Shown piece after piece: positions 260 to 58,326 of a stretch of 64,000 nucleotides of DNA (position 1 is its first letter; each line of letters begins with the position of its first letter). The notes beneath the pieces are model-generated. The model saw nothing but the letters and a program-made list of their open reading frames with translations. It ran no database searches and was not told where the DNA came from. This stretch comes from a virus: IMG/VR virus record IMGVR_UViG_3300025834_000005; one strand, written 5' to 3'. A program made the position numbers and the translations under genes.

Positions 260-3255
260 TTTTTTAATTTATTATCGAGAGGCGTATTTATTTTTGATGA
301 CGCAACTAACTGACCATTCTTACTCACCATAGGTTTTATACTATATTGATCATGTTCAACTTGCGACGGTTTTATGTAAATATCCTTATTAGTAAAGGTT
401 GAATTAGCATAATAGTTCATCGACAATGCATTCTGTAGAATGTCAATAGGGCCTTTGAGTGACTGACCACCAATAATCTTTATCTGTAAAGTTACATTAC
501 ACATAAGATACTGCATACCAAACCCTTCAGGATTCATATCCCAAGGCATTTCATTATAATCAATAGTTAAAGTTTCTGGAACTATCTTACTATGAATAAA
601 ATCACCAAGTCTTAGAATCAATATAGGTTGCTTACCAAATATTGAATTCTTTATATCATTACCAGTTGTTGTTTTCTGTGGCATACCCTGTCTCATACAT
701 TGCTGTAAAAACGTTAAGCGTCTATGAAAATCTTCTGGAGTTTGTGAGTGAAAACATGGTTTAAATGCATTCTCGCTTATAGACTTTGTACCGCTAATTA
801 TCTTTCCATCTGTACTATTTGGAGCCACAACTTTACTATCCGAATATAAATTATTATACCTATCAATATTACCGCCCTTATCCCCAAGTAATTTAACATA
901 GTAATCCCTTTCGGTAGTTAATACCTTTAGTCTGGCTTCTTCCTCTGGATTCAGTAATTTTTGTGGTCTTGTCGTTATTAAGCCCTTATTTTTAACAATT
1001 GTGATCTTAACACTTCTTTCAGATTTAGCACTTAAACTATTAATGGTTTCTTTTGACACGTTGTTCATGCTTGCAATACCTTTTGGTTTTAAAATAAAAT
1101 CAACAACCACATCAGAACCAAGCAATGCTTTAAGTCTCGCATTAATAAATGTCTTAGCGGCTTCAGTTCTTCTAACGCTTAAATTATAATTATATTCTTT
1201 ACTGTTTTTACCCAGATATAATGCTGTTGAGCTACCTTCGATCTGTATACTATAATATTGTCTGAATACAGGATTTGTAAACGTTTTAATTAAAAAGTCA
1301 TTAAACGGACAACTACCATTAAAGCTATATTGCGGAACATCTATATTTAAATTTGCTTGAGTACCTGAAGTATAATCAATATAAATATTTGAAGTATCAT
1401 AGATATTACTGTTTAAGCCGTTACTATTATCAAGATCATCAATCGTATATAAACCAGATTTAACCTCATAATTTTTCTTATACATCGTATCGAATACTGT
1501 ATCAATATCGCTGGTATTCGGTGAATCATTCATAAATGAAATTAAAAATTCTCCCGACGCATTTAATGTTGGAGCATATTCAGCTGGTTTCTTAAATTTA
1601 TCAATCTCGATCTGTAACTTATTTATCTTTGCCTGATAATCATCCTGTAGAGACACGTTATTATCAAGACTATTATAGCCGAAAGAAAAGAATTCAGATA
1701 TAGCACGATGTTTATCCTTGCCTCTATAACGATTATCGTTTAATTGAGGTGGATAATCGACAAGCAATGTAAAAGTTAATGTACCGCTTCGTTCTGAACC
1801 AGTATATGAATATATAGGCTCATTTCTACCCAGAATTGTGGTTGAATTAAACTTAGATGATGTGGTTTCCATAAATTGGATGTTGTATGGCGGAAACCAC
1901 ATAAGTCTGCCATGATGTGGTTCAGATAATCCGACCTCAGATAATGGAACTTTTGACCCATCATCACAAAGTCCGCTATCTAAAACATTATATGCGAGAT
2001 TCTCTATTGAGAACATTAAATTTCTGTTATTGGTCTTACCATTATCGTCAATAATAGGATGGAATTTAGGTACAACTGTCTTATATATGGTTGAGTTAGG
2101 ATTACCGCCATATATATTATTACCATTATATCTAATAGCTTTAGCAAATCTATTATATTGATTAAGCATGGTATGTTGTCTCATACCTATTGTTGAACCT
2201 ACCAATGAATCGGATGGAGATTCCCATACACCTGAACCGTTATAATGCATGCCATCGCTATTTTTAAATTTAGCATTGGTAATATCAATAACTTGACCTT
2301 CCTTTTTTACTAAATTTATATCGTTCATTAATTCACGAGTATAATCTAACAATCCTGTTTGAACCCCAAATGTTTTAGTATTACTTGATTTATTATCAAT
2401 ATCAATGTTTGAACCCCAAATAAGTGTTGTATCGTTATTGAAGCCATTATCGTCATTTATATTTGAATTGATATCAGTACTATCATTATTATAATGAACT
2501 GATGTATTTCCGAAATTAGTTGGAGATTTGAAATGATTACTTTCTCTATATCCATATTCAACATGATCAGAACTGCTACCTATAGTTATTAAAGGATTCC
2601 AACTATTCGTAGGAGTTATTGGGTTATCCTTATCTTCATATTTAATGAAAAAATCAGCTTTATATAGATTTTTATTCATTGATCTATAAAGCATATTTAA
2701 TTGACCAGAACCAGTATTGGTCATTACAGCATCTAATGAATCATTCAACGATTTCTCTGTTGTGTGTTCAAGATTATGAAACGGACTATTAGTATATGGA
2801 TAAGCACCTGTTATATTATTAACAAAATCTAAAAAATTAGATGATCCTTCTTTTTTTGTGATACTGTAATTAAATTTCTTGGTAAATAATTTTGTGTTTT
2901 TATCACCATCAAATAAATTCATTATGCTTATTTTTGGAATAACCTTTAAAGCTTCTAACGAAGCATTGGCTATAAAATTATAAGATAATTGCTTCCCAAG
3001 CATCGCTAATCCTATTTCAGTTATTGGTGTTTTATTAGACACTAACCTGCCAATAACCGAATTGGATAAATCAAAGGTTGAATAAGGCATTAAAGTGCTA
3101 ACAACACTATCAACTGAATTGATAATCTTTGTTAATTTAGTATCATTATCTAAAGGGTATGGTTGATCAGGAGAATATAGGCTTCTCGTTAATAACTTTT
3201 GTCTCAATTCCTCTGTTGAAGTCAATAATCTTGATTTTATCAAATCATTTTCCAT
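256..3255 (-). CDS. Large baseplate/tail structural protein (999 aa)
   Basis: Long ORF with the late-type motif 14 nt upstream, coupled to the downstream LysM-like gene. The internal segment GRLMWFPPYNIQFMETTSSKFNSTTILGRNEPIYSYTGSERSGTLTFTL resembles tail-tube/tube-initiator signatures. Function is assigned mainly by context. Confidence 0.6.
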   Translation of the reverse strand: MENDLIKSRLLTSTEELRQKLLTRSLYSPDQPYPLDNDTKLTKIINSVDSVVSTLMPYSTFDLSNSVIGRLVSNKTPITEIGLAMLGKQLSYNFIANASLEALKVIPKISIMNLFDGDKNTKLFTKKFNYSITKKEGSSNFLDFVNNITGAYPYTNSPFHNLEHTTEKSLNDSLDAVMTNTGSGQLNMLYRSMNKNLYKADFFIKYEDKDNPITPTNSWNPLITIGSSSDHVEYGYRESNHFKSPTNFGNTSVHYNNDSTDINSNINDDNGFNNDTTLIWGSNIDIDNKSSNTKTFGVQTGLLDYTRELMNDINLVKKEGQVIDITNAKFKNSDGMHYNGSGVWESPSDSLVGSTIGMRQHTMLNQYNRFAKAIRYNGNNIYGGNPNSTIYKTVVPKFHPIIDDNGKTNNRNLMFSIENLAYNVLDSGLCDDGSKVPLSEVGLSEPHHGRLMWFPPYNIQFMETTSSKFNSTTILGRNEPIYSYTGSERSGTLTFTLLVDYPPQLNDNRYRGKDKHRAISEFFSFGYNSLDNNVSLQDDYQAKINKLQIEIDKFKKPAEYAPTLNASGEFLISFMNDSPNTSDIDTVFDTMYKKNYEVKSGLYTIDDLDNSNGLNSNIYDTSNIYIDYTSGTQANLNIDVPQYSFNGSCPFNDFLIKTFTNPVFRQYYSIQIEGSSTALYLGKNSKEYNYNLSVRRTEAAKTFINARLKALLGSDVVVDFILKPKGIASMNNVSKETINSLSAKSERSVKITIVKNKGLITTRPQKLLNPEEEARLKVLTTERDYYVKLLGDKGGNIDRYNNLYSDSKVVAPNSTDGKIISGTKSISENAFKPCFHSQTPEDFHRRLTFLQQCMRQGMPQKTTTGNDIKNSIFGKQPILILRLGDFIHSKIVPETLTIDYNEMPWDMNPEGFGMQYLMCNVTLQIKIIGGQSLKGPIDILQNALSMNYYANSTFTNKDIYIKPSQVEHDQYSIKPMVSKNGQLVASSKINTPLDNKLKK

Positions 3256-3269
3256 TAATTACATATTTC

Positions 3270-3279
3270 ATATAAATAC
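3270..3279 (-). promoter_or_regulatory. Late-promoter-like motif GTATTTATAT
   Basis: Coding strand reads AAGTATTTATATGA, 14 nt before the ATG of the 999-aa gene. Confidence 0.5.
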
Positions 3280-3576
3280 TTATTGGAAAAATAATTGAGA
3301 ACCAAACTCTGATATTTGATTTGAAGAATCAAATAAACATAAAACCCCTAACATTTAAATGTTTTTTCTTTATTCGAAGATTAAAGGAAACAAAATTTGG
3401 AAGTTTGTTTTACGGTTGCAAATCTAAAAAGAGGATTTTTTTATTCTTTTGTCTTTAAAAACATATATAAAAGAAGACTCGGCAAAGTTACAAAGAATTT
3501 TTGACATTATTACTATGTTTTTTCTAAAATTTAGATAATTATTTTTCATCAACATAAATTAATCTCTTTAAATCTC

Positions 3577-3607
3577 TTGCGAAGATACAAATAATAATCT
3601 ATATTTG
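3577..3607 (+). promoter_or_regulatory. Bacteroidetes sigma-A-type promoter (-33 TTG / -7 TAnnTTTG) for the Bro-N gene
   Basis: cTTGc (3577-3579), 20 nt spacer, TATATTTG (3600-3607), ATG at 3640. Confidence 0.55.
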
Positions 3608-3639
3608 CAACTAATTTTAAAAATAAAACTGTAAATAAT

Positions 3640-4437
3640 ATGAGTGAAAGTGCGTTAATACCAAAAATTATAAATAATAGTGAGTTCGGAATAGACTTTC
3701 GTTATTGGGATAGTAAAAAATTAGGTCAAAGAGTATACTTAGGCACTGAAATAGTTAATTATCTGGGTTATAATAGCGGAACAAAAAATCTCCATAGATA
3801 TGAACTTGAGGAAGGCATTGATATGATTAAGTTAGTAAAAAAGGGTAATGAGGATTTCTTTAAACAACTACACGTATCAAATACGCTTGGTCAAAGAGCA
3901 GGCTCGGTGATACTTATAACTGAGAGTGGTATATTCAAGTTGTTATTAAAATCAAAAAAAGCGTTTGCTAAGAACATGCGTGACTGGATTTGCCGAACTG
4001 TTTTACCTTCAATTAAGGACACTGGTAAATATATTGTAGGCGAGGAAATGATCGCTCCGAATCAATTAACTGAATTAGGGCAATATACCTTCGGCGTAAA
4101 ACAAAAAGAGATTAGTAAAGTAACTAATTATAAAATTAGTATTGGTACTGGCGATTACGCTTCCGAGAATAATAATATACATCTTATAGTTCATGGAAGA
4201 ACTGCTGGACAGTTACGTTCTAAATATCATGAAAATGGTTCTGCTAAGGATATATTAAGAAAACATGAGCCAGCAATTGCATGTACATTGGCATTATTTG
4301 AAAATTTATCTAATAATGATATTGATCGAGATAAAATTATTGATAGCGGAGTTATTAAAATGAGTAAGGAAATATATAATGGTTTTGAAAAATTAGGAAT
4401 ACCTTTATATATTCCAGTCCCAAAAGCATTGAAATAA
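3640..4437 (+). CDS. Bro-N domain protein (BRO/antirepressor family), moron-like insertion
   Basis: N-terminal F..DFRYW....GQRVYLGTEIVNYLGY....LITESGIFKLLLKSKKAFAKNMRDWICRTVLPSIKDTGKY matches the Bro-N pattern. Lone plus-strand gene inside minus-strand tail genes, with its own promoter and terminator. Confidence 0.75.
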   Translation: MSESALIPKIINNSEFGIDFRYWDSKKLGQRVYLGTEIVNYLGYNSGTKNLHRYELEEGIDMIKLVKKGNEDFFKQLHVSNTLGQRAGSVILITESGIFKLLLKSKKAFAKNMRDWICRTVLPSIKDTGKYIVGEEMIAPNQLTELGQYTFGVKQKEISKVTNYKISIGTGDYASENNNIHLIVHGRTAGQLRSKYHENGSAKDILRKHEPAIACTLALFENLSNNDIDRDKIIDSGVIKMSKEIYNGFEKLGIPLYIPVPKALK

Positions 4438-13225: not shown

Positions 13226-13235
13226 ATATAAATAC
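13226..13235 (-). promoter_or_regulatory. Late-promoter-like motif GTATTTATAT
   Basis: TTGTATTTATATGA, 16 nt before the tape-measure ATG and immediately after a terminator hairpin. Confidence 0.5.
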
Positions 13236-48516: not shown

Positions 48517-50454
48517 TTATTTCCCTTCTCGCAAGTCTATATCTTTTATAAAATCGTTCACATCTCCAAGGTCACCGCTAATTAACTCATCAATCTCGTT
48601 GATCATATTGGTGGCTGTTTTGTTCGATTTATCCAATTCACTCTCAAAAATTACCTGAGCATCTGATTTTTTTACAATCTCATGTCCATAAACTAATTTT
48701 TCAAGATTTGTGTTAAATTCCGCTTCTGTCATTACTTTTCTCCTGTTAACGGATTCAGCTTCGATTGGTGGCAAGTCTGATGGCGATTGATTTGGTAATC
48801 CAGAACCTCCGAGATCAGCCATATTGATAGGTGGCATATCGCCGCCAACACCTCCACCAGCAGGTGGTGGCATTCCGCCTTCACCTCCACCATCAGGTGG
48901 TGCTGTTGTACCGCTTGCAGCAGCCATAGCTGTTGGGTCGCCATATCTCTTATCAATATCAGCGAATAATCCCGACTTCTTAATTGCGACAGGCGCATCA
49001 GCAAATTCTTGCATAATAACTTTCTCCATTTTCTGTTGTTTCAAGTCCTCAACGATTTCTCTGTCAGTCATATTAAACAACATTCTTTTTGCACCTGTAT
49101 GAGACATTGCAGCGATTCCGCCTTCTGATCTTGTAAGTTCAGTATATGTTTGAGATTTCTCTCTCATTAATTCAGATTTCTGAATATCGAGTTGTGTTGA
49201 TGGATTTGTTAATGTTAAAGTAAAATCATTAAAGTCTTCTGTACTGTAACCTAATAAGTATAAATGAATCATACCCATTTTTGTTAGCTCTTGTACCATA
49301 GCCTGTTGAATTCTATTTACCTTCTTAGCAAATCTAATATCAAATTGCGAGACGTTTTTACCACCACCGCTGGCATCTTGAAATGACAAAAATGGCTTAG
49401 GAATACCCAATCCCATGAATAAATTATCTCTCAAATATTCGATATCATGTATATCATTAAGATTAGTAGCACCTGGCAATGTTTCGATACCTGTCTGAGT
49501 ATTAGCGTTTCTAACAGGTAAAAAGTAATCTTCATCATTACCTAATATGTTAAATCGATAATCAATCTGACCATCATTAGGTGATACTTGCTGAACCTTT
49601 TTAAATTTAGTTGCTACCTTGTACATGTATTCTTCAATATCATCGTCATCGATGTTACCAACGTCTATTTTAAATACCTTTTTCTCGCCAGCACGAATAA
49701 TCCTATATGTTAGCATGGCATCCTCTGCCATTATAAGCTGTCTAAAAACTCTTCTTACTTTGTTTAGTAGCGATGATCCGTATGGAATGTATTTGTCATC
49801 GCCAAGCAATCTAAAGTGAGCTATTTCAAAGGCATTGAATTCATCACCAGTCATTCTTTCTTTGAAAAGAATGCTTGACTTACCGTTTATGATTCTTTCC
49901 GATCTTTCAATCTCAAAATTAACCATTTGCTTAATAGCTGTGATACCCTTTTTTCTTTCACCGAGCATTAATACGAAATTATCGCCGTATTTGCATGTGT
50001 TTCTTGTCCAGAAGGGTAAATTTGTGTTTACATTTAAGATATTATAGTAAAAATCCTCTAAAAGATATTTAATACGATCTTTATTCGAATAAATACTCAA
50101 CATTTTACCGTCTAAGCCTATTGTGGTGGCTTCTTCCATGAATAAGTCCAAAGCACTTGAAATAATTGGGTAGTATTCCATACCCTCATAATCCATGTAA
50201 GCAGGTAGTCTGGCAGATTCGTATTGTAATGCTTTCTGGTAATTCCTATCAGTTGTTTTTGTGAATTTATTTATAAGGCTTCTTTTCTGTTCAAGTTCAA
50301 GTCCTTTTCTATGAACCTCTTCAGGCGAATTACCTTTAATAATTACCTTATTATTTTTTACCTCATTATCAATGCCACCTGTTGTAGTTCCGAAGCCATC
50401 GAAATTAAATATTCCGTTTAGCTTTTGATATACTGTTCCTTTATCTTTATCCAT
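48517..50454 (-). CDS. Portal protein (T4 gp20-like)
   Basis: LPAYMDYEGMEYYPIISSALDLFMEEATT and overall size. Located downstream of terL. Low-complexity G/M/P-rich segment near the C-terminus. Confidence 0.8.
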   Translation of the reverse strand: MDKDKGTVYQKLNGIFNFDGFGTTTGGIDNEVKNNKVIIKGNSPEEVHRKGLELEQKRSLINKFTKTTDRNYQKALQYESARLPAYMDYEGMEYYPIISSALDLFMEEATTIGLDGKMLSIYSNKDRIKYLLEDFYYNILNVNTNLPFWTRNTCKYGDNFVLMLGERKKGITAIKQMVNFEIERSERIINGKSSILFKERMTGDEFNAFEIAHFRLLGDDKYIPYGSSLLNKVRRVFRQLIMAEDAMLTYRIIRAGEKKVFKIDVGNIDDDDIEEYMYKVATKFKKVQQVSPNDGQIDYRFNILGNDEDYFLPVRNANTQTGIETLPGATNLNDIHDIEYLRDNLFMGLGIPKPFLSFQDASGGGKNVSQFDIRFAKKVNRIQQAMVQELTKMGMIHLYLLGYSTEDFNDFTLTLTNPSTQLDIQKSELMREKSQTYTELTRSEGGIAAMSHTGAKRMLFNMTDREIVEDLKQQKMEKVIMQEFADAPVAIKKSGLFADIDKRYGDPTAMAAASGTTAPPDGGGEGGMPPPAGGGVGGDMPPINMADLGGSGLPNQSPSDLPPIEAESVNRRKVMTEAEFNTNLEKLVYGHEIVKKSDAQVIFESELDKSNKTATNMINEIDELISGDLGDVNDFIKDIDLREGK

Positions 50455-50475: not shown

Positions 50476-50485
50476 CTATAAATAC
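50476..50485 (-). promoter_or_regulatory. Late-promoter-like motif GTATTTATAG
   Basis: 21 nt before the portal ATG. Confidence 0.45.
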
Positions 50486-50529: not shown

Positions 50530-51822
50530 TTATTTTTGCCTCATACCACTAAATAACCATGAATTTGCGATATAAGGATTCAATGGTGAAGAGCTATTCG
50601 GCGAAATTTTTGGCACAGGCTTTTCACCCCTTTTCTCACCTATGGCTTTTATATCATTTGCTGATAATATGGATTTAAGCATACTTTCAGTTGTGCTGTT
50701 AGATTGTTTAAATCTTGCCATATCGAAATTAATAACAAATAAGCCAATGGCTAATCCCATAATAGAATCATCATGGAATGACCTCTTATGGTCAGCAACA
50801 CGATTACCAGCAACTGTTACGAATGTCTTCAACTCTGTTAATAATCTCAATGATCTTATAATAATATCTTCTAAATGTATTGATCTCTGTAACTCTAATA
50901 CCACTGATGCTCTGTTGTTTCCAATGAAAAAACCTGGAATTAAGTCAACATAAGATACTGCACCGTCAGACATTGTTTTCTGACCTTTTTTGATATAGCC
51001 AGCTAAACGATCTCTCGATGGTTTATGTGATACTTCAGCATAATGAACATTATCATAACCGATTTCAAGAAGTTTCTCAACAGCTTGTACACCGTATCCA
51101 CCAGTGATATCCACAACAGCATAAGCATTATTATAGGCTTTGCCATATTGATACACAATTTCAGCTAAACCTTGAGGTACAATCTTACCATAATATTCAG
51201 CGACTTGTTCTATTTTGAATTTTTTTAGCTTAACCTCTTTCTCTCTACCGTTCTTTACAATTATCTTTTTTTCTATATACTCCTTGCGTTTGAGGATGTT
51301 AACGGTTGAATTATCTTCTCCGTGACCTGGTGATGCATCGACAGCTATAACATATTGTTCTTCTGGAATAGGGTCTTCGAATATCCACATATTCTTATCC
51401 ACATATTCTTGACGGATAGGCGTTCTGATTTCATTATCTTGGATTCTTTTTAGATATTCTTCATCAATAAAGTTATCTCCTGATCCTAAAAATGAACAGT
51501 TATGATTTGAAAAGCCATTTGCAAAATAATCACAGTCCTTTGAATCTATTATATCAAAGAAATCGCAACCATCGATAATTTCAACAGATTTAACAAAATA
51601 ATCGCCATCTATAGTTGATACGTATGAAATATTTGGAACCAATGATTTAACATACATGTTTTTTCCATTGGCTAAAAATATATGATCGTCGCTCACCGTG
51701 ATCGTCATCTCATTTTCCAACGTGACTTTATACCCTATGTTTTTATGAGACTTACTAATCCCAGCGAAATCAACGAAGTCACCAGATGAGTTTAATATTT
51801 CATATTCTAAATTTATCAGCAT
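50530..51822 (-). CDS. terL: Terminase large subunit, C-terminal half: intein C-fragment (108 aa) + nuclease domain
   Basis: Starts with the Hint block B MTITVSDDHIFL and ends the intein at DYFANGFSNHN|CSFLGSG. The extein then carries VIAVDASPGHGED, VVDITGGYG and HDDS, RNaseH-like terminase nuclease motifs. Confidence 0.8.
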   Translation of the reverse strand: MLINLEYEILNSSGDFVDFAGISKSHKNIGYKVTLENEMTITVSDDHIFLANGKNMYVKSLVPNISYVSTIDGDYFVKSVEIIDGCDFFDIIDSKDCDYFANGFSNHNCSFLGSGDNFIDEEYLKRIQDNEIRTPIRQEYVDKNMWIFEDPIPEEQYVIAVDASPGHGEDNSTVNILKRKEYIEKKIIVKNGREKEVKLKKFKIEQVAEYYGKIVPQGLAEIVYQYGKAYNNAYAVVDITGGYGVQAVEKLLEIGYDNVHYAEVSHKPSRDRLAGYIKKGQKTMSDGAVSYVDLIPGFFIGNNRASVVLELQRSIHLEDIIIRSLRLLTELKTFVTVAGNRVADHKRSFHDDSIMGLAIGLFVINFDMARFKQSNSTTESMLKSILSANDIKAIGEKRGEKPVPKISPNSSSPLNPYIANSWLFSGMRQK

Positions 51823-53105
51823 TTTATAAAGTTAATACATTCGTTGATTATCTCAACTGGTTTTTTATTTCTATTATATTCATCTGACGTTACTATCATT
51901 ATTTCATAGCCCATATCCTTCAATATGTCATATCTAATTTTATCCTTTTTTGAGTTATGCCAATAGTTTCCATTATATTCTATGATCTTGTTTTTGTGCT
52001 TAAAATCCAACATCATAATAATATTCTCATGATTATAAATTTCAGGAATTCTAAGTACGTATTCCTTATTTAAATCGTGAAAATATGTATCGTCTTTATT
52101 GTCCATCAAGTTATAAACGTTAAAAAAAAGTTCTTGAGATATTTTACTAAATCTGTTTGCTTTTAATAGCGACAGGGTTTCCATTTTATTGTTAACATAG
52201 TTTTTATATTTTTCTTCGCCGCTATTTCCATATTTTTTTTCAAACCATTTCAAACTATTAGTGCTATTCTCATGTACATTAGCCTTTCTATTTTTATGAT
52301 ATTGTTCCCAATCAGTACCATAAGTCGATTTAAACCATTCAGTGGATGGGTATTTTGGTTCGCATTTGGCGCAAATTATATTAAACACGCCATTAACGAA
52401 TTTCCAATGCTTTAGGTTTTTATGAATATCGCAATATGTATTAATTTTATTAACTAAAATATATAGCCTATGTGAAAACTTATTTAAGTTTTTATTAAGA
52501 TTATCCATGTGTGACGTGTGATAATAAAGACTTGCAAAGAGTTTAGTATCAGCTGCTATTAATTTTCTGTTTCCAGATTTTCCGAGATACTTGTAATAAT
52601 CATTTTGTAATAATTCAATAGTTTCATCCTTGGTATAGAATTCTTTAATAATATTTATTTTATTTGCTGTTAATTCCCATGATTTTTTTGCTGAGTTTTT
52701 TGCCTTCTCAATAAAATCGCCAGATATTCTATCATATACTAATATTTTACCATCCTTCGTTATTTTATCTATTTCGCCATTATATTTTTTTAGATATAAT
52801 AATTTAGGATATAATGATCTATTCATTGAGCATGTTTGTATTTCCTTTGTATGAATATCGATATCCTTTAGGAGATTCGGGAAATCTTTATTAAACATTC
52901 GGCTTCCACCCTGAATTTTATATTTTTCAATATATATAGTAATTATTTTATTAATTAATTTTTTTCGCATCTGATCATTTAGATATAAATACGTAGACGA
53001 ATTGTTTTGTTCTTTTAATTTATCATATAAATCCTCAATTCTAATTTTTTCGATTATGCCTGTTTGTTTATTTCTTATTGTTAGCAAAGCCTCGCCAAAA
53101 ACGCA
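51499..53105 (-). mobile_element. Intein-type intervening element in terL (Cys1 codon 53103-53105 to the Asn before Cys+1 at 51496-51498), split across two ORFs and carrying an endonuclease-like domain
   Basis: Boundaries are from my translation: TGC at 53103-53105 begins CVFGE. HN is followed by TGT at 51496-51498. The joined exteins read ...KKIAQEIL-CSFLGSGDNFIDEEY. Confidence 0.7.
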
Positions 53106-54200
53106 TAGGATTTCCTGTGCGATTTTTTTCATATCGCCGTTGGCATCACGAACCTGTTCTTCGAACCAAGGTGATGAGGCTTCCCAGCCATCATCCATCA
53201 TTTTTATTCTCTGAGCATCTTCCCAACCCTCATCAACTATCTTAATTTCGGTGTCTTTCCCTTTATTTTTAAGCCATACGAGTCCTTTATTGTATCTTGG
53301 GTCGTTATACCACCACAACTCAATAGCACAGAAGTTATTCTTACCTTCCTTTCGTCTTGCACCTTCGAAATTCTTATAAAAAACAGGGTCTAATCCTGAT
53401 GGGGTGCTAACCATAATAGCTCTACCCCCTGTACTTAATGCAGGCTTTGCAGCTGTCCAAAACTTATCTGATTTTTCAGTCCAAGCAGTTTCATCCCAGA
53501 ATAATAACGTTGGCGTAGTACCACGAAGTCCACTCTTTGCTGAGAATGCACCCAAGGCTGAATTATTATCATAACGTTTTAATTTCTGAGTATCTTTATA
53601 ACTTTTATCAGTCCCAGCACCTTTACCTGTTTTTGGCTTAAGCCAATCAGGACAGCCCTCAATAAATTCTACAACATCATTCATCAACTCATCACGAGCT
53701 GTTTCAAGTTTATCTGCGACAATGGCAGCGGTTCTGTTACTATTAAACATAACATACCATGCGATATACGCACACGTAGCCGTTGAAATACCAGCCTGTC
53801 TATATTTATTAGCAATGTTAAATCTCTCATCGAGATATGATTGTATTAATCTTTTTTGGAATACGAATAATTTAAATGGCACAATTCGTCCAGCCACACC
53901 CTGCGTCTGGTCAAATATTGTTAAATAAGTTTCGATAAAATACATTGGACTTGATACACATCTGATAATCTCACATTCCTGTTCAGACATGTTTAATTCA
54001 CTTGCTTTTTTTATCGATCCATTTGCAGTGATTATAATGGGTTCTACTTTTCCAGAAGATTTACGTAAGTCTTTAGCCAGCTTTCTCTGTTCCTCTTTCT
54101 TTTGTAAGTCGGAAGCACTGAATGCTGCTACTGCTGGTATATGTTCGGGGAATTGATTGTCATCAATTTCTGACGAATCTTCTGATTTTTTTACTGCCAT
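51816..54200 (-). CDS. terL: Terminase large subunit, N-terminal ATPase half (365 aa), fused to an intein N-fragment and a Vsr/PD-(D/E)XK-like endonuclease region
   Basis: KYRQAGISTA (Walker A-like), LLFWDETAW (Walker B), MVSTPSG. Then ...AQEIL|CVFGEALLTIRNKQTGIIEKIRIEDLYDKL (Hint block A). The ORF ends MMLDFKHKNKIIEYNGNYWHNSKKDKIRYDILKDMGYEIMIVTSDEY. Confidence 0.8.
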   Translation of the reverse strand: MAVKKSEDSSEIDDNQFPEHIPAVAAFSASDLQKKEEQRKLAKDLRKSSGKVEPIIITANGSIKKASELNMSEQECEIIRCVSSPMYFIETYLTIFDQTQGVAGRIVPFKLFVFQKRLIQSYLDERFNIANKYRQAGISTATCAYIAWYVMFNSNRTAAIVADKLETARDELMNDVVEFIEGCPDWLKPKTGKGAGTDKSYKDTQKLKRYDNNSALGAFSAKSGLRGTTPTLLFWDETAWTEKSDKFWTAAKPALSTGGRAIMVSTPSGLDPVFYKNFEGARRKEGKNNFCAIELWWYNDPRYNKGLVWLKNKGKDTEIKIVDEGWEDAQRIKMMDDGWEASSPWFEEQVRDANGDMKKIAQEILCVFGEALLTIRNKQTGIIEKIRIEDLYDKLKEQNNSSTYLYLNDQMRKKLINKIITIYIEKYKIQGGSRMFNKDFPNLLKDIDIHTKEIQTCSMNRSLYPKLLYLKKYNGEIDKITKDGKILVYDRISGDFIEKAKNSAKKSWELTANKINIIKEFYTKDETIELLQNDYYKYLGKSGNRKLIAADTKLFASLYYHTSHMDNLNKNLNKFSHRLYILVNKINTYCDIHKNLKHWKFVNGVFNIICAKCEPKYPSTEWFKSTYGTDWEQYHKNRKANVHENSTNSLKWFEKKYGNSGEEKYKNYVNNKMETLSLLKANRFSKISQELFFNVYNLMDNKDDTYFHDLNKEYVLRIPEIYNHENIIMMLDFKHKNKIIEYNGNYWHNSKKDKIRYDILKDMGYEIMIVTSDEYNRNKKPVEIINECINFIKC

Positions 54201-54793: not shown

Positions 54794-57379
54794 TTACTTT
54801 TTGTTCAATTTGATGAATTCAGCATACTGTTTATTAATAACAGCATCCAATCTTTTCATTTGCGGCGATTTAGCACTTTCGCTTAATCTTGCTTTCTTTT
54901 TTCCAGTCACTTCAAGTAAATGGTTTTGAACATATGTTTTGAAAACATCTTCAACTGTTTCATTTACTTTAGCTTTCTTTTTAGCTTTACCTTCGTTCAT
55001 CGTAACGTTTACTGTTTTTGACTGTGCGTCAACATTAACATTAACGCCAGCACCTGTGCTTACAGTTGCTAACGGCGACGGTGAAACTGCTCCGAGTGAT
55101 TGTGTGTCAGTTGCGAACATACTTTCAGGTTCGGTTTCGTTGGTATCGCCAACAGTATCGATATCAGGCTCGGTACTATCTTCCTTTCCAAGATCAATAT
55201 CTTCAATATTTTCAAGATCGTCATCAGCCTCATTAATACCATCTGATGCACCTGCAACAACATATGTTGCATCATTTCCGTATACATGATTAACACCAGC
55301 ATTCATCTTTTTGGCATATGCATCAGCTTCTTCTTTAGTATCGAAACCTTGTTTAAGTGTTCCTTTATCGTCTTTCTTATATTTATCCTTTTTAAAGTTT
55401 ACTTTGAATGGAAGATCATCCTCTTCTTTAATTAAAGTGTTACCACCCTCAAGTTCACCCTCATTTTGAGCATTAAACTTGCTTAGGTTTGTTTCGCCAT
55501 TAGGTACTCTTAATTGATTGCTTAATGTGTGCAATACAGAAGCATAGTTTACAGGTTTTCCACCGTTTTTAACGGTTGCAGCGTTCAATGCATCGATCTT
55601 TGCTTTCAACTCCTGAGCAATTTTAGCTACAGCACCGACAGCTGAATTCTGATTGCTATTTCTATAATCCTTTTCAACACTCTTATAAGCGTCTTTAGCA
55701 CCATTCGCTACAGCGTTAGCTGCATTACCTACGCCAGTTGCCACATTGTTAGCAGCACCAGCAACAGCATTACCCACACCCTTAGCGGCATTACCCACAC
55801 CAGTTGCTACATTGTTAGCAGCACCAGCAACAGCGTTACCCACACCCTTGGCAGCACCAGCAACAGCACCAGCACCTTTTCCAGCTAATTTACCAACACC
55901 TCTACCAACAGCACCAGCAAGATTCCCCCAGTTTAATTCATTAATCTTCAACTGTTTGTCTTCGTCTGTTGATTCGCTTAGTTTCATGATCTCTGGTTTA
56001 AGAACCTCATTAACATAAGTTTCGTGACCATAATCGTTTACTAATGATTCGTTTACGTCGTCATTGGTGTATAATGAAACTGTTTCAGCGTCGCCGTTAT
56101 TTTTTCCGTCTTTATGTGCGTTAGCATAACCAGAAATAAGACTTCCCATTTCATCGTCGCCACATTCCATAATGCTTTCTTTTGTGTAACCTCTTGATTC
56201 TGCGTATTGAACAAATCCACCGCACTCATTACAAGTCTCTGCGTTTTCATTCATTCTCATTACCTGATTCAATGGTATATTATATCCGTTTGGATCAATA
56301 ACTGGTTCTGATTCGCCAGTTTCTTCATTTGGGACATATTCAATTTCAAGCCAGTCAGATGTTTTTGGATCATCTGAACCAAATGCATCACGTACTTTTG
56401 CTGAATCTCCTGAACTATCTATCATAATCTCATATCCGCCACTATTTGATACAGTATACGACCCGTTTGGTGTGAATTCCTCGTCGCCGAATCCAGCTGT
56501 TTCATCAACTTCGTCTGGCATGCTATTTTCAAGGTCTTGTTCGCCACCAGTATTTGTTTTTAATATTTTGTTTGCAATCTCTTTTCTATCTTCAACCTCA
56601 ATTTCAGGTAGTTTGTCTTTAAAAGATGCTACAAGTGAAGCTAAATATGATTTGGTTTGTTCAGGAGTCATTTCAGCTTTTCTGATGGTGTTTGTTAACT
56701 TGCCAATTGATTTCTCAATCGCCTTATTAATGTCATCGCCCTCAGCACCTTCTTCGCCACCCATATCGGCAGGCATTTCTTCACCGCTCATATCAGCAGG
56801 CATCTCATCACCCATTTCTCCACCAGCACCCATATCGCCAGCACCGTCGCTCATATCAGCACCCATACCTGTTTCTGCTCCCATTTCGTCGCCAGCACCC
56901 ATGTTACCGCCATCATTAGCAGTAATTTCTGGTGATGCTTTTTCAGCGGCTGTTGCTGCTTCAAGATTATCTAAAGAATCTTCAGATTTTTCAATTTCAT
57001 CACCAGCAATATCTTCATTTAGAACCATTTTGCTAACATTACCGTTAACTTTGATCCCAGATGCTCTATTCATATCGGTAATCATGAAATTTCTCTGTTT
57101 TTCAGATTCAGCAAGCGTTGAAAATTGGAATGATGTGATATTCTCAAGTCCACCAATGTATGTAAAATCTGATGCGTCTGGATTTAATTTTGTACCACCT
57201 CTTTTTATGTAATAGTTATGGTTTTCCTTAATAATACCAAAGGCGATCCCTTCATTATTTCTCTTAATGTCTACCAAAGTACCGATATTTCTATCGTTGA
57301 TTTTAGCTTTAAAATCCTTTATTTCAGATAATTCTTGAAGTCTGTTGTAGAACGCTTCTTTAGATGTATTTTTTTTCAT
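54794..57379 (-). CDS. Acidic low-complexity protein (861 aa) with tandem GVGNAVAGAANNVAT repeats
   Basis: Long ORF with the late-type motif 41 nt upstream. G/M/D/E/P-rich tract, CNECGG...MECGDD Cys pairs, and a duplicated 22-aa unit. Confidence 0.6.
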   Translation of the reverse strand: MKKNTSKEAFYNRLQELSEIKDFKAKINDRNIGTLVDIKRNNEGIAFGIIKENHNYYIKRGGTKLNPDASDFTYIGGLENITSFQFSTLAESEKQRNFMITDMNRASGIKVNGNVSKMVLNEDIAGDEIEKSEDSLDNLEAATAAEKASPEITANDGGNMGAGDEMGAETGMGADMSDGAGDMGAGGEMGDEMPADMSGEEMPADMGGEEGAEGDDINKAIEKSIGKLTNTIRKAEMTPEQTKSYLASLVASFKDKLPEIEVEDRKEIANKILKTNTGGEQDLENSMPDEVDETAGFGDEEFTPNGSYTVSNSGGYEIMIDSSGDSAKVRDAFGSDDPKTSDWLEIEYVPNEETGESEPVIDPNGYNIPLNQVMRMNENAETCNECGGFVQYAESRGYTKESIMECGDDEMGSLISGYANAHKDGKNNGDAETVSLYTNDDVNESLVNDYGHETYVNEVLKPEIMKLSESTDEDKQLKINELNWGNLAGAVGRGVGKLAGKGAGAVAGAAKGVGNAVAGAANNVATGVGNAAKGVGNAVAGAANNVATGVGNAANAVANGAKDAYKSVEKDYRNSNQNSAVGAVAKIAQELKAKIDALNAATVKNGGKPVNYASVLHTLSNQLRVPNGETNLSKFNAQNEGELEGGNTLIKEEDDLPFKVNFKKDKYKKDDKGTLKQGFDTKEEADAYAKKMNAGVNHVYGNDATYVVAGASDGINEADDDLENIEDIDLGKEDSTEPDIDTVGDTNETEPESMFATDTQSLGAVSPSPLATVSTGAGVNVNVDAQSKTVNVTMNEGKAKKKAKVNETVEDVFKTYVQNHLLEVTGKKKARLSESAKSPQMKRLDAVINKQYAEFIKLNKK
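55718..55850 (-). repeat. Direct 66-nt tandem duplication inside the 861-aa gene
   Basis: ccagttgc(c/t)acattgttagcagcaccagcaacagc(a/g)ttacccacaccctt starts at 55734 and again at 55800. It encodes KGVGNAVAGAANNVATGVGNAA twice. Confidence 0.8.
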
Positions 57380-58316: not shown

Positions 58317-58326
58317 GTATTTATAT
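58317..58326 (+). promoter_or_regulatory. Late-promoter-like motif GTATTTATAT
   Basis: CAGTATTTATATAT, 22 nt before the ATG at 58349. Confidence 0.5.

Follow-up and report, generated by a model that had tools for sequence, protein, structure and literature searches.

A fractured phage terminase gene with an atypically split intein and a read-through Vsr-like homing endonuclease

The arrangement of two overlapping reading frames in the window (the whole 64,000-nucleotide stretch of viral DNA analyzed here) indicates that the large terminase gene, terL, is a fractured gene, broken at the ATPase/nuclease junction AQEIL|CSFLGSG. The gene carries an intein of the AceL-TerL/Cat type, the N-terminal part of which is continuous in frame with a Vsr-like homing endonuclease (HE); we think it likely that the fusion is a heritable feature that is tolerated. 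The gene belongs to an uncultured, ~328-kb giant phage with a T4-like module; the first-pass annotation had called the phage identifiable, but a megablast search against deposited phages gave no match.

The fractured gene and its intein

Every feature described here lies on the minus strand. ORF A (51816..54200; 794 aa, with its TGA stop at 51816-51818) encodes in succession the TerL N-extein, an N-intein fragment, a read-through leader, and the HE; ORF B (50530..51822; 430 aa) encodes a C-intein fragment followed by the TerL C-extein. The N-extein (53106..54200; residues 1-365, ending ...KKIAQEIL) is the terminase ATPase, with matches to Pfam Terminase_6N across ORF A residues 134-370 (E=5.6e-10) and to T4 gp17 structures (E~1e-15), and the C-extein (50533..51498; Cys109-Lys430, starting CSFLGSGDNF) is the nuclease, with a match to that of the RB49 terminase (3C6A). 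Alignments to intein-less homologues span 75% of ORF B, and the junction in the 114 intein-less sequences reads AQE(I/L)L-CSFLGSGDNF, which is the seamless TerL predicted when the exteins were first joined on paper. An identical copy of the ORF A protein is recorded on 8 contigs; the comparison took in 15 contigs carrying the locus, the longest of 328.5 kb.

The intein itself is a class-1 intein of the AceL-TerL/Cat type, atypically split after block A. Its N-intein core (53016..53105; Cys366-Leu395, 30 aa, ending ...EDLYDKL) contains block A/N1, begins with the Cys1 codon at 53105-53103, and aligns to CatN (6DSL_A). The C-intein fragment (51499..51822; Met1-Asn108, 108 aa) contributes blocks B, F, and G (SDDH ... 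FSNHN), is the counterpart of CatC (6DSL_B), and is followed by the Cys+1 codon at 51498-51496. A family intein profile, made from N- and C-fragment sequences, matched CatC at E=5.1e-19, gp41-1 at 5.8e-15, VidaL at 1.5e-5, and CatN at 3.9e-3; single-sequence matches to Cat are weak (E=0.0068 for the C-intein fragment against CatC, 0.15 for the other half). Across the family, Cys1, the His of block B, and the closing His-Asn-Cys never vary. These profile matches and catalytic residues bear out the original assignment to the AceL-TerL class, and the coordinates and motifs first given for both ORFs, Cys1, Cys+1, and the ATGCTGA overlap were all confirmed. The intein appears to be split after block A because a gene for a Vsr-like (EDxHD family) HE lodged at that point.

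The AceL-TerL, GOS-TerL, and Cat atypical split inteins were reportedly described by Thiel in 2014, Bachmann and Mootz in 2015, and Stevens in 2017 (PDB 6DSL). The intein in the window resembles them in its TerL host, its class, its Cys1 and Cys+1, its split after block A, and the size of its parts (about 30 aa for the N-intein core, about 104-108 aa for the C-intein). Among solved structures, Cat matches both halves best, although sequence identity is low. The N-inteins of this group have been described as 25-37-aa fragments, and in GOS-TerL and AceL-TerL the residues past about 25-27 are dispensable (PMC11766414). In contrast, the N-intein in the window bears about 15 aa of translated leader and a 384-aa endonuclease.

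The junction between the two reading frames

The stop of ORF A and the start of ORF B share the 7 nt ATGCTGA (51816..51822). An A4 run in ATAAAATGCTGA lies exactly at this junction, and one added base would fuse the frames, as might be expected if a homopolymer error in sequencing or assembly had broken a single contiguous endonuclease-bearing maxi-intein. That reading is effectively refuted. Two assemblies, ENA ERZ27245488 and Logan SRR5829597, come from different samples and are 100% identical at this locus over 5385 nt. In at least 13 protein clusters that have diverged to 59-69% identity, the protein ends at the same residue as ORF A, with junctions like AACATGTTAA that have no A-run. The position of the overlap is kept in more than 20 distinct relatives while its nucleotides differ: ATGTTAA, without an A-run, predominates (12 distinct sequences), and ATGA, ATGCTAA, ATGTTAG, and others also occur. 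The C-intein/TerL-C protein forms about 60 clusters, all of 422-448 aa, and the fully fused form of ~1220 aa is absent from them; moreover, the ORF B frame of the window has stops 3 codons upstream of the ORF B ATG. The split is genuine, and the choice initially left between a real split and a sequencing error is settled by the identical assemblies and the conserved overlap.

The same bases suggest a second way of obtaining a contiguous, cis-splicing precursor, either in addition to the halves or in their place. At A_AAA_TGC a tRNA-Lys could slip back by one base from AAA to AAA, so that a programmed -1 ribosomal frameshift would join ORF A to ORF B. We regard such a frameshift as highly improbable, since the A-run is not conserved (TTAACATGTTAA is found in 12 distinct relatives) and the junctions examined contain no other slippery pattern, as judged by sequence pattern.

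We favor instead a model in which the two halves are made separately. ORF A would yield the 794-aa TerL-N/N-intein/HE protein, and ribosomes that end ORF A at the overlapping stop would go on to start ORF B, which might also be translated from transcripts that begin at an internal promoter-like motif. The N-intein core (roughly 30 aa) would dock on the 108-aa C-intein fragment, and trans-splicing would then generate a 687-aa TerL, leaving a 429-aa N-intein/HE and the 108-aa C-intein fragment as by-products. The HE, both as N-intein/HE and probably as a free 384-aa protein begun at Met411, could cut HE-less alleles in co-infections, and the HE cassette would be copied into the cut alleles. In this model we infer from sequence that the halves splice, that the HE is active, that transcription starts internally, and that translation can begin at Met411.

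The read-through leader and the homing endonuclease

In distant relatives with three ORFs a stop directly follows ...ELYNxL, the equivalent of ...EDLYDKL in the window. A comparison of fused and three-ORF junctions defines what comes next in ORF A as a read-through tail and linker (52971..53015; Lys396-Gln410, KEQNNSSTYLY-L-NDQ). Leu407 (CTA, 52980-52982) occupies the position of the N-intein stop of relatives, and NDQ is the former 9-nt spacer, which is in frame in the window; the N-intein ORF thus reads through the leader into the HE.

The leader also contains GTATTTATA (52984..52992), a promoter-like gene-start motif that ends 13 nt before the internal ATG. The window has 14 copies of it where 2.7 are expected, and 11 of the 14 precede the ATG of a long ORF on the same strand by 10-44 nt. 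The name promoter-like reflects this position and enrichment, and it has to be weighed against the codon usage of an AT-rich genome that itself favors TAT and TTA. Fused loci, where the stretch is coding, and unfused loci, where it is non-coding, alike keep a TATTTAT core 8-15 nt ahead of the HE ATG, and Met411 aligns with the start (MNK...) of free-standing HEs. With its own promoter-like motif and ATG, the HE could also be produced outside the fusion.

The HE proper (51819..52970; Met411-Cys794, 384 aa) is co-linear with free-standing homologues of ~386 aa, and this C-terminal part of ORF A is predicted to be an active homing endonuclease of the Vsr-like (EDxHD) family. The catalytic domain (51819..52148; ORF A residues 685-794) has invariant Asp732, Glu741, and His748, and Asn743, Asp753, and Arg756 are also conserved. 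The HE family profile matches I-Bth0305I (3R3P) at E=1.3e-5, and an AlphaFold model of the HE (pLDDT 90) finds the same structure as its top Foldseek match (probability 1.00, TM 0.64). Pfam DUF559 is matched by 19 of the 33 HE family members; the nuclease domain of the window by itself matches it weakly (E=0.09), and it is the family profile and the predicted fold that carry the assignment. The profile checks recommended in the first-pass annotation have therefore come out in its favor, with Cat and gp41-1 for the intein and 3R3P and DUF559 for the endonuclease that it saw following in frame.

I-Bth0305I resides in a recA group I intron, is a free protein, and belongs to the EDxHD family (Taylor et al. 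2011, PMC3239194; PDB 3R3P). Both enzymes are phage-borne and tied to self-splicing elements, and in both a long N-terminal region presumed to bind DNA precedes the Vsr-like catalytic domain at the C-terminus, which has conserved Asp/Glu/Asn/His/Asp residues. In the window HE the N-terminal region consists of helical modules, a Cys/His hairpin pair, and WFxxxYG repeats. The Cys/His cluster (YCDIHKNLKHW...ICAKC; 52362..52436, ORF A residues 589-613), whose Cys residues are nearly invariant, appears zinc-ribbon-like in the model, with paired beta-hairpins, and may contribute to DNA binding.

In fused loci the HE is under purifying selection (dN/dS 0.10-0.17). This, and the covalent joining of the domain to TerL-N until splicing, might suggest that the C-terminal 390 aa have become a domesticated DNA-binding or nuclease module serving the terminase precursor and are no longer a mobile endonuclease. 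We consider domestication very unlikely: splicing would take the domain off TerL, most relatives are insert-free (the 114 intein-less sequences), and there are decayed copies, one frameshifted (P0014), one with an internal deletion (P0018), and one with a frameshift plus a stop (L038). Decay and insert-free relatives, together with a cassette younger than its flanks and low in GC (25-29% in the HE versus 34-41% in the exteins), are the marks of a selfish element. The age difference comes from the pair L020/L021, in which dS is 0.28-0.49 and dN 0.03-0.04 for the HE plus tail, against dS of 1.07-1.97 and dN of 0.09-0.22 for the N-intein core, the C-intein fragment, and both exteins; such contrasts come from a small number of pairs and from short stretches, and base composition differs in the HE. 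They indicate a probable recent transfer of the HE cassette, linker included, and the HE looks mobile.

Origin and standing of the fusion

Our survey took in some 95 loci and some 250 proteins. Most relatives have a three-ORF layout, in which the N-intein ORF ends with a stop, a short leader follows, and a free-standing HE gene comes next, its stop overlapping the C-intein/TerL-C start. This classical version occurs in about 35 contigs, with junctions homologous to that of the window, and the fused architecture recurs in the ORF A homologues P0002-P0013 (59-69% identity) and in about 15 IMG/VR contigs. The layout in the window is best read as derived from a three-ORF fractured gene, presumably through loss of the N-intein stop codon.

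Canonical endonuclease-bearing inteins, such as PI-SceI in VMA1, are one polypeptide, with a LAGLIDADG or HNH endonuclease between blocks B and F. The window shares with them an endonuclease that is in frame with intein sequence and would be freed by protein splicing; unlike theirs, it follows block A, is Vsr-like, and is attached to one intein half. The first-pass annotation took the locus for an intermediate between such an intein and a split one, a view we have abandoned, as no contiguous endonuclease-bearing intein occurs among the roughly 95 loci and roughly 250 proteins of the survey. The contiguous mini-inteins of this lineage still bear traces of the endonuclease tail, so they are re-fused descendants and not ancestors.

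Fractured genes were defined by a stop after the N-intein, a 27-51-nt non-coding spacer, and a free-standing endonuclease gene, in three ORFs with an HE/C-intein overlap of 6-69 bp; the authors add that inteins were not known to contain Vsr-like or GIY-YIG endonucleases (Dassa et al. 2009, PMC2677866). The same study in NAR reported a gp17-like terminase from Lake Gatun broken at an unusual point, with a long C-intein that has every N-terminal motif but N1 (PMC2677866). The window has the same break point as that locus, a Vsr-like endonuclease, and the same one-strand order of N-extein/N-intein, endonuclease, and C-intein/C-extein, and its 7-bp overlap of the endonuclease 3′ end with the C-intein start resembles those in fractured genes generally. 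It differs in having no stop, so that N-intein and endonuclease form one ORF. This missing stop was singled out as unusual at the outset; the layout as such is commoner than was thought, occurring in two clades of metagenomic phages in a simple neighbor-joining HE tree without support values, and with analogues in cultured Vibrio phages. It is a recurrent but modest variant of the fractured-gene layout.

Could the fusion be adaptive and not merely tolerated? Run-through ribosomes might couple the TerL halves 1:1, or the HE might be kept tethered or inactive until trans-splicing. The fusion has been kept in two clades over deep divergence with the HE intact, Vibrio phages show it again, there with an unrelated GIY-YIG endonuclease, and the 7-nt stop/start overlap is strictly conserved. 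We nevertheless find an adaptive role doubtful. Three-ORF relatives outnumber fused ones by at least two to one, L094 within a fused clade is unfused through a single-nucleotide difference from the fused L020 that creates TGA, the linker varies among fused loci (LNDQ, EKGF, KSRY, KNTIL), and the HE retains its own start signals. Fused status tracks the lineage of the HE cassette and so can spread by homing without benefit to the phage. Most likely the fusion is a heritable trait of an HE cassette lineage with an open 5′ leader, tolerated by splicing, and not a required mechanism.

The cultured Vibrio phages VP-1 (MH363700), 1.244.A (MG592609), and K469 (OZ195916) have an N-intein/endonuclease in frame, then an overlapping C-intein/TerL-C ORF, at the identical TerL site and with the identical atypical split; their endonuclease is GIY-YIG instead of Vsr-like. 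The layout is thus compatible with a viable phage. Vibrio phage Va1 (MK387337) shares the TerL site, the atypical split, and a homologous Vsr-like endonuclease, but its fusion is the mirror image, with endonuclease, C-intein, and TerL-C in one ORF. The fusions in these Vibrio phages are unannotated; the records say only terminase, coil-containing protein, or hypothetical.

A terminase gene divided between two overlapping reading frames

The large terminase of this phage is encoded on the minus strand by ORF A (54200..51816, 794 aa) and ORF B (51822..50530, 430 aa), which share the 7 nt ATGCTGA, the 3′ end of the endonuclease lying over the start of the C-intein ORF. The codon for Cys1 is at 53105-53103 (-) and that for Cys+1 at 51498-51496 (-); these positions reproduce those of the first-pass annotation, which was made from the sequence alone. 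ORF A begins with a TerL ATPase of T4 type (residues 1-365; Pfam Terminase_6N, 5.6e-10; PHROG 5989, 1e-31), matched by T4 gp17 structures at an E value of about 1e-15, and ORF B ends with 322 aa matching terminase nuclease domains. The retrieved homologues include 114 without any insert, which read AQE(I/L)L-CSFLGSGDNF with no interruption, so the predicted spliced junction is seamless, as had been claimed, and spliced TerL would contain the peptide ...KKIAQEILCSFLGSGDNF.... A megablast comparison of the terL locus with deposited phages returned no match. In three intein-less TerL clusters (P0102, P0107, and P0249) the +1 position is Gly and not Cys (AQEIEGSFLGSG); an intein there could not splice, and such alleles may be immune to productive invasion.

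The division into two frames is real. The relatives' stop/start junction is mostly TTAACATGTTAA, without an A-run, and across 5385 nt the window's sequence recurs without a difference in two assemblies made from different samples, which settles in favor of a true split the question, raised earlier, of a homopolymer error. The same junction sequences lead us to reject a −1 frameshift, and an alternative genetic code is rejected because TAA directly follows the TGA stop of ORF A and the relatives use TAA. The exact 794-aa protein was present on 8 contigs in one search, and 15 contigs were read, the longest of 328.5 kb; 12 further clusters, at 59-69% identity, have the same architecture, ending ...C(I/L)xF(L/I)xC before the stop. 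The position of the overlap is conserved in more than 20 distinct sequences, and the homologues that cover ORF B in full, approximately 60, all have lengths of 422-448 aa. A contiguous maxi-intein would run as one ORF through N-intein, endonuclease, and C-intein; the stop and start are instead conserved, and no fully fused ORF of ~1220 aa was found among these ORF B homologues or among 80 IMG/VR loci.

The inserted element has the features of a class 1 intein, namely Cys1, block B, a terminal His-Asn-Cys+1, similarity to solved inteins, and insertion at a conserved site of the host protein for which intein-less alleles exist. Its first residue, Cys366, is invariant in a 16-sequence alignment, as are the His of block B (SDDH) and the His, Asn, and Cys of ...SNHN-C; the Asp of block F is invariant in the 16-locus alignment of N-intein and C-intein. 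As single sequences, neither ORF matched Pfam Intein_splicing, ORF B had no intein match in Pfam or PHROGs, and the best solved relative of both halves was Cat (PDB 6DSL), the engineered consensus atypical TerL intein, with weak scores (CatC, E=0.0068; CatN, E=0.15). Since single-sequence matches were absent or weak, family profiles were needed. The profile built from N-intein sequences joined to C-intein sequences at 16 loci (alignment A2) matches CatC (5.1e-19), gp41-1 (5.8e-15), VidaL (1.5e-5), and CatN (3.9e-3), as well as DnaX, DnaE, and RadA inteins; several mini-inteins are among its matches. The HINT fold assignment rests on such sequence profiles, and these matches bear out the Hint membership proposed earlier.

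The break falls after block A, placing an N-intein core of 30 aa and a C-intein of 108 aa on separate polypeptides, and about 60 clusters likewise keep ORF B as a frame of its own. A break at this point is also found in AceL-TerL (25/104 aa), GOS-TerL (37/115), and Cat (30/104) (PMC11766414). The first-pass annotation had assigned the intein to the AceL-TerL type, and as regards the break between blocks A and B the assignment stands; it does not hold for the free short N-fragment of an atypical split intein, since 399 further residues follow Leu395 in frame, with no intervening stop, as that annotation had itself remarked. Because TerL is essential and the layout persists, we infer that the intein is active in protein splicing.

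An endonuclease joined in frame to the N-intein

From Met411 on, ORF A aligns co-linearly, at 50-59% identity, with free-standing proteins of ~386 aa that form about 35 clusters; some of these proteins carry the JGI label very-short-patch-repair endonuclease. Asp732, Glu741, and His748 (alignment positions Asp322, Glu331, and His338) are invariant in a 33-member alignment, and Asp343 (Asp753 in ORF A), Arg346, and three Cys are nearly so; Asn743 of the catalytic set is present in the window, the HMM alignment used to map catalytic residues to I-Bth0305I covering them only in part. Among solved structures the family profile best matches the I-Bth0305I catalytic domain (3R3P, E=1.3e-5), I-Bth0305I being the prototype of the EDxHD homing endonuclease family, and 19 of the 33 members match Pfam DUF559. 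For the AlphaFold model (pLDDT 90), the top Foldseek PDB match is 3r3p (probability 1.0, TM 0.64 on the target), and the BFVD structure matches are phage VSR, DUF559, and homing-endonuclease proteins. The Vsr/DUF559-like nuclease suspected from the sequence is in this way confirmed by profile, with the Vsr-fold C-terminal catalytic domain and composite catalytic residues (Glu, Asp, His, Asp) of the EDxHD family. As a single sequence ORF A gave just a weak DUF559/MTES_1575 match in Pfam, PHROGs contained no match for the endonuclease, and its N-terminal 270 aa, where EDxHD enzymes carry NUMOD/HTH DNA-binding repeats, have a confident predicted fold but matched no DNA-binding family in Pfam or the PDB. 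The GC content of the insert is 25-29%, versus 34-41% in the exteins. More distant homologues of the catalytic domain are found on IMG/VR viral contigs (L067-L090) that have no detectable TerL or intein context, and the family evidently targets other genes too.

A fractured gene, as described by Dassa 2009, consists of three ORFs, which encode in turn N-extein/N-intein, endonuclease, and C-intein/C-extein, with a spacer of 27-51 nt and an overlap of 6-69 bp between endonuclease and C-intein, and one terminase in that study was broken at the unusual split point seen in the window (PMC2677866). The window has the same order of parts on one strand and an overlap of 7 nt, but its spacer is in frame; a stop, a non-coding spacer, and a free-standing endonuclease are found in two related loci, L006 and L007, and about 35 others. 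In L006 and L007 the TerL-N/N-intein ORF ends in ...SCEYLY and a stop or ...SCMYL and two stops, the endonuclease (MNK...) begins 10-12 nt later, and C-intein/TerL-C follows after a 7-nt overlap. More distant loci have the stop directly after the 30-aa core (...ELYNxL) and a leader of 40-55 nt, with TATTTAT conserved 8-15 nt before the endonuclease ATG. The window reads ...KEQNNSS-T-Y-L-Y-L-N-D-Q-M... (ACG TAT TTA TAT CTA AAT GAT CAG ATG), where CTA (Leu407) occupies the stop position of the relatives and the 9-nt spacer continues the reading frame; we read Met411 as the surviving ATG of the ancestral endonuclease. At the former stop, Glu, Lys, Ser, Val, Met, or Arg is found in other fused sequences, whose linkers vary. 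One locus, L094, lies within a fused clade yet is unfused, a 1-nt difference from the fused L020 creating TGA. P0121, considered as a free-standing member nested in a fused clade, was dropped since its contig begins inside the gene. A census of loci with TerL context comprised about 15 N-fused contigs, about 35 three-ORF contigs, and a C-fused group in which endonuclease, C-intein, and TerL-C share one frame (L062-L064 and Vibrio phage Va1); none was fully fused.

The endonuclease probably keeps its own expression signals within ORF A. The window has 14 copies of the motif GTATTTATA, where 2.7 would be expected, an approximately 5-fold excess that was reached in 0 of 100 shuffles. Of the 14, 11 precede the ATG of a long same-strand ORF by 10-44 nt, the portal and other large genes being among these ORFs (sites of the motif include 50477-50485(-), 3271-3279(-), 13227-13235(-), and 58317-58325(+)). 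One copy, at 52984-52992, falls within ORF A, and 13 nt separate it from Met411. Its position and enrichment suggest that GTATTTATA is a phage promoter-like element, here translated as T-Y-L-Y by the N-intein ORF, and the motif and start codon together would permit internal initiation. As a candidate promoter of this phage, it resembles the T4 late promoter, TATAAATA, in style. A sigma-70 promoter scan gave 24 sites, with 26.7 expected; terminator-like sites numbered 6 versus 1.6 expected, one of the six on the gene strand.

Mobility, decay, and re-fusion of the cassette

The fused endonuclease is apparently alive and mobile. Across six pairs of fused loci its dN/dS is 0.10-0.17. Between the loci L020 and L021, the tail and endonuclease have dS of 0.28-0.49 and dN of 0.03-0.04, as against 1.07-1.97 and 0.09-0.22 for the N-intein core, C-intein, and both exteins; these comparisons involve few pairs and short segments, and the estimates are indicative. 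The contrast implies that the cassette, including the open linker, has a more recent common ancestor than its surroundings, and between L013 and L005 the whole intein with its endonuclease is younger than the exteins. Since the cassette is younger than its surroundings and the fused forms make up two clades in a neighbor-joining tree of the endonuclease, the open 5′ edge may be a property of particular cassette lineages that travels with them. The L020/L021 mosaic suggests that the endonuclease is targeted at the intein, and the younger cassette and decayed copies may be indirect signs of site-specific cleavage and homing.

A broader proposition, that in-frame fusion of an intein half to an endonuclease is a heritable trait of mobile cassettes that have shed an edge stop codon (at the 5′ edge, or in Va1 the 3′ edge), is one we offer tentatively and consider rather unlikely. 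Were it true, each homing event would make a "half-fractured" gene, the endonuclease would be stoichiometric with the host protein and freed by trans-splicing, and the atypical split site would be a mere landing place of Vsr-like and GIY-YIG cassettes. Taken with the re-fused mini-inteins described below, it would also imply free interconversion of split and contiguous inteins within phage populations.

Endonucleases in decay are found in P0014 (a frameshift), L038 (a frameshift and a stop), and P0018, where an internal deletion has left the terminal ...KIIEDCIKFLTC and its stop in place. Two clusters, P0020 (locus L092) and P0025 (L091), have contiguous mini-inteins at the same TerL site as the window's. 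Their linkers still contain the last 30-60 nt of the endonuclease ORF, and a 1-nt insertion at the former stop/start overlap. The retained tail corresponds to the terminal helix conserved across the endonuclease family, so these contiguous inteins descend from fractured genes; judged by their linkers, they are split inteins re-fused after deletion of the endonuclease. To the first-pass annotation the locus had looked like an intermediate between a contiguous endonuclease-bearing intein and a split one. The direction is reversed: it is the contiguous forms that carry endonuclease remnants, and no fully fused ORF was found among the ORF B homologues or the IMG/VR loci.

Cultured analogues and significance

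Half-fused layouts also occur in phages isolated in culture, whose records leave them unannotated. Vibrio phages VP-1, 1.244.A, and K469 have a single ORF for TerL-N, N-intein, and a GIY-YIG endonuclease, which overlaps the C-intein/TerL-C ORF that comes next, and six K-series sisters and 1.255.O share this N-fused layout. In Va1 a short N-intein ORF precedes a homologous Vsr-like endonuclease fused to C-intein/TerL-C, and EniLVp02 has a plain split without an endonuclease. The split inteins are unannotated in four cultured Vibrio phage genomes, MG592609 (L096), OZ195916 (L097), MK387337 (L001), and PP209424 (L003), whose records label the fusion ORFs terminase large subunit, coil containing protein, or hypothetical protein.

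The feature is real and well supported; its parts are all of known kinds, and their arrangement is new. At the atypical split site, a Vsr-like homing endonuclease is translationally fused to an N-intein fragment; the endonuclease's promoter-like motif and start codon are embedded in coding sequence; and three-ORF, N-fused, C-fused, decayed, and re-fused states are all documented within the family. Beyond the anatomy we infer the mechanism: splicing in trans, an active endonuclease, initiation within ORF A, and translational coupling. According to Dassa 2009 (PMC2677866), no GIY-YIG or Vsr-like endonuclease was known inside an intein, and a 2025 survey of actinophage inteins reported Vsr-like endonucleases only in association with split inteins or anti-sense, not in frame (10.1101/2025.01.02.630785); here, in contrast, such an enzyme is covalently attached to an intein fragment. 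In the literature searched, which did not extend to the original AceL-TerL and Cat papers, we saw no account of an N-intein fused in frame to an endonuclease. The window offers a natural case, in an essential gene, of an N-intein fragment of ~30 aa bearing a 390-aa C-terminal domain, which suggests to protein engineers that Cat-type N-inteins tolerate large C-terminal cargo. The graded series, from empty allele through three-ORF, N-fused, C-fused, and decayed-endonuclease forms to the re-fused contiguous mini-intein, shows the origin and possible reversion of atypical split inteins. For annotation, several deposited phage genomes name such fusion ORFs just terminase or hypothetical.

Further inteins accompany this one in some relatives. 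The TerL of VP-1 (L002, ORF 1322-3538) has, besides its atypical split intein with the GIY-YIG fusion, a second, contiguous mini-intein at the P-loop region (SRQSGK/CVDHDTM...ILSHN/TTVV). An extra intein in the ATPase domain, after ...AIMVS, matches Pfam LAGLIDADG_3 in P0007, P0015, P0019, P0024, P0046, and others, and likewise in L007 (ORF 1387-3990); some TerL relatives combine it with the split intein and endonuclease, and the window's TerL is without it. The portal genes of related phages (L006, 4947-7588, and L094, 4545-5682), of 1540 and 1042+ aa, are far longer than that of the window (48517-50454, 645 aa) and match Intein_splicing; the window's portal appears free of an intein, and its C-terminus is Gly/Pro-rich (PPDGGGEGGMPPPAGGG). 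Upstream of terL, on the same strand, a large ORF of 861 aa (54794-57379, -) contains an acidic region of repeats rich in Gly, Asp, and Met (GAGDMGAGGEMGDEM...), and also AKGVGNAVAGAANNVATGVGNAA repeated in tandem.
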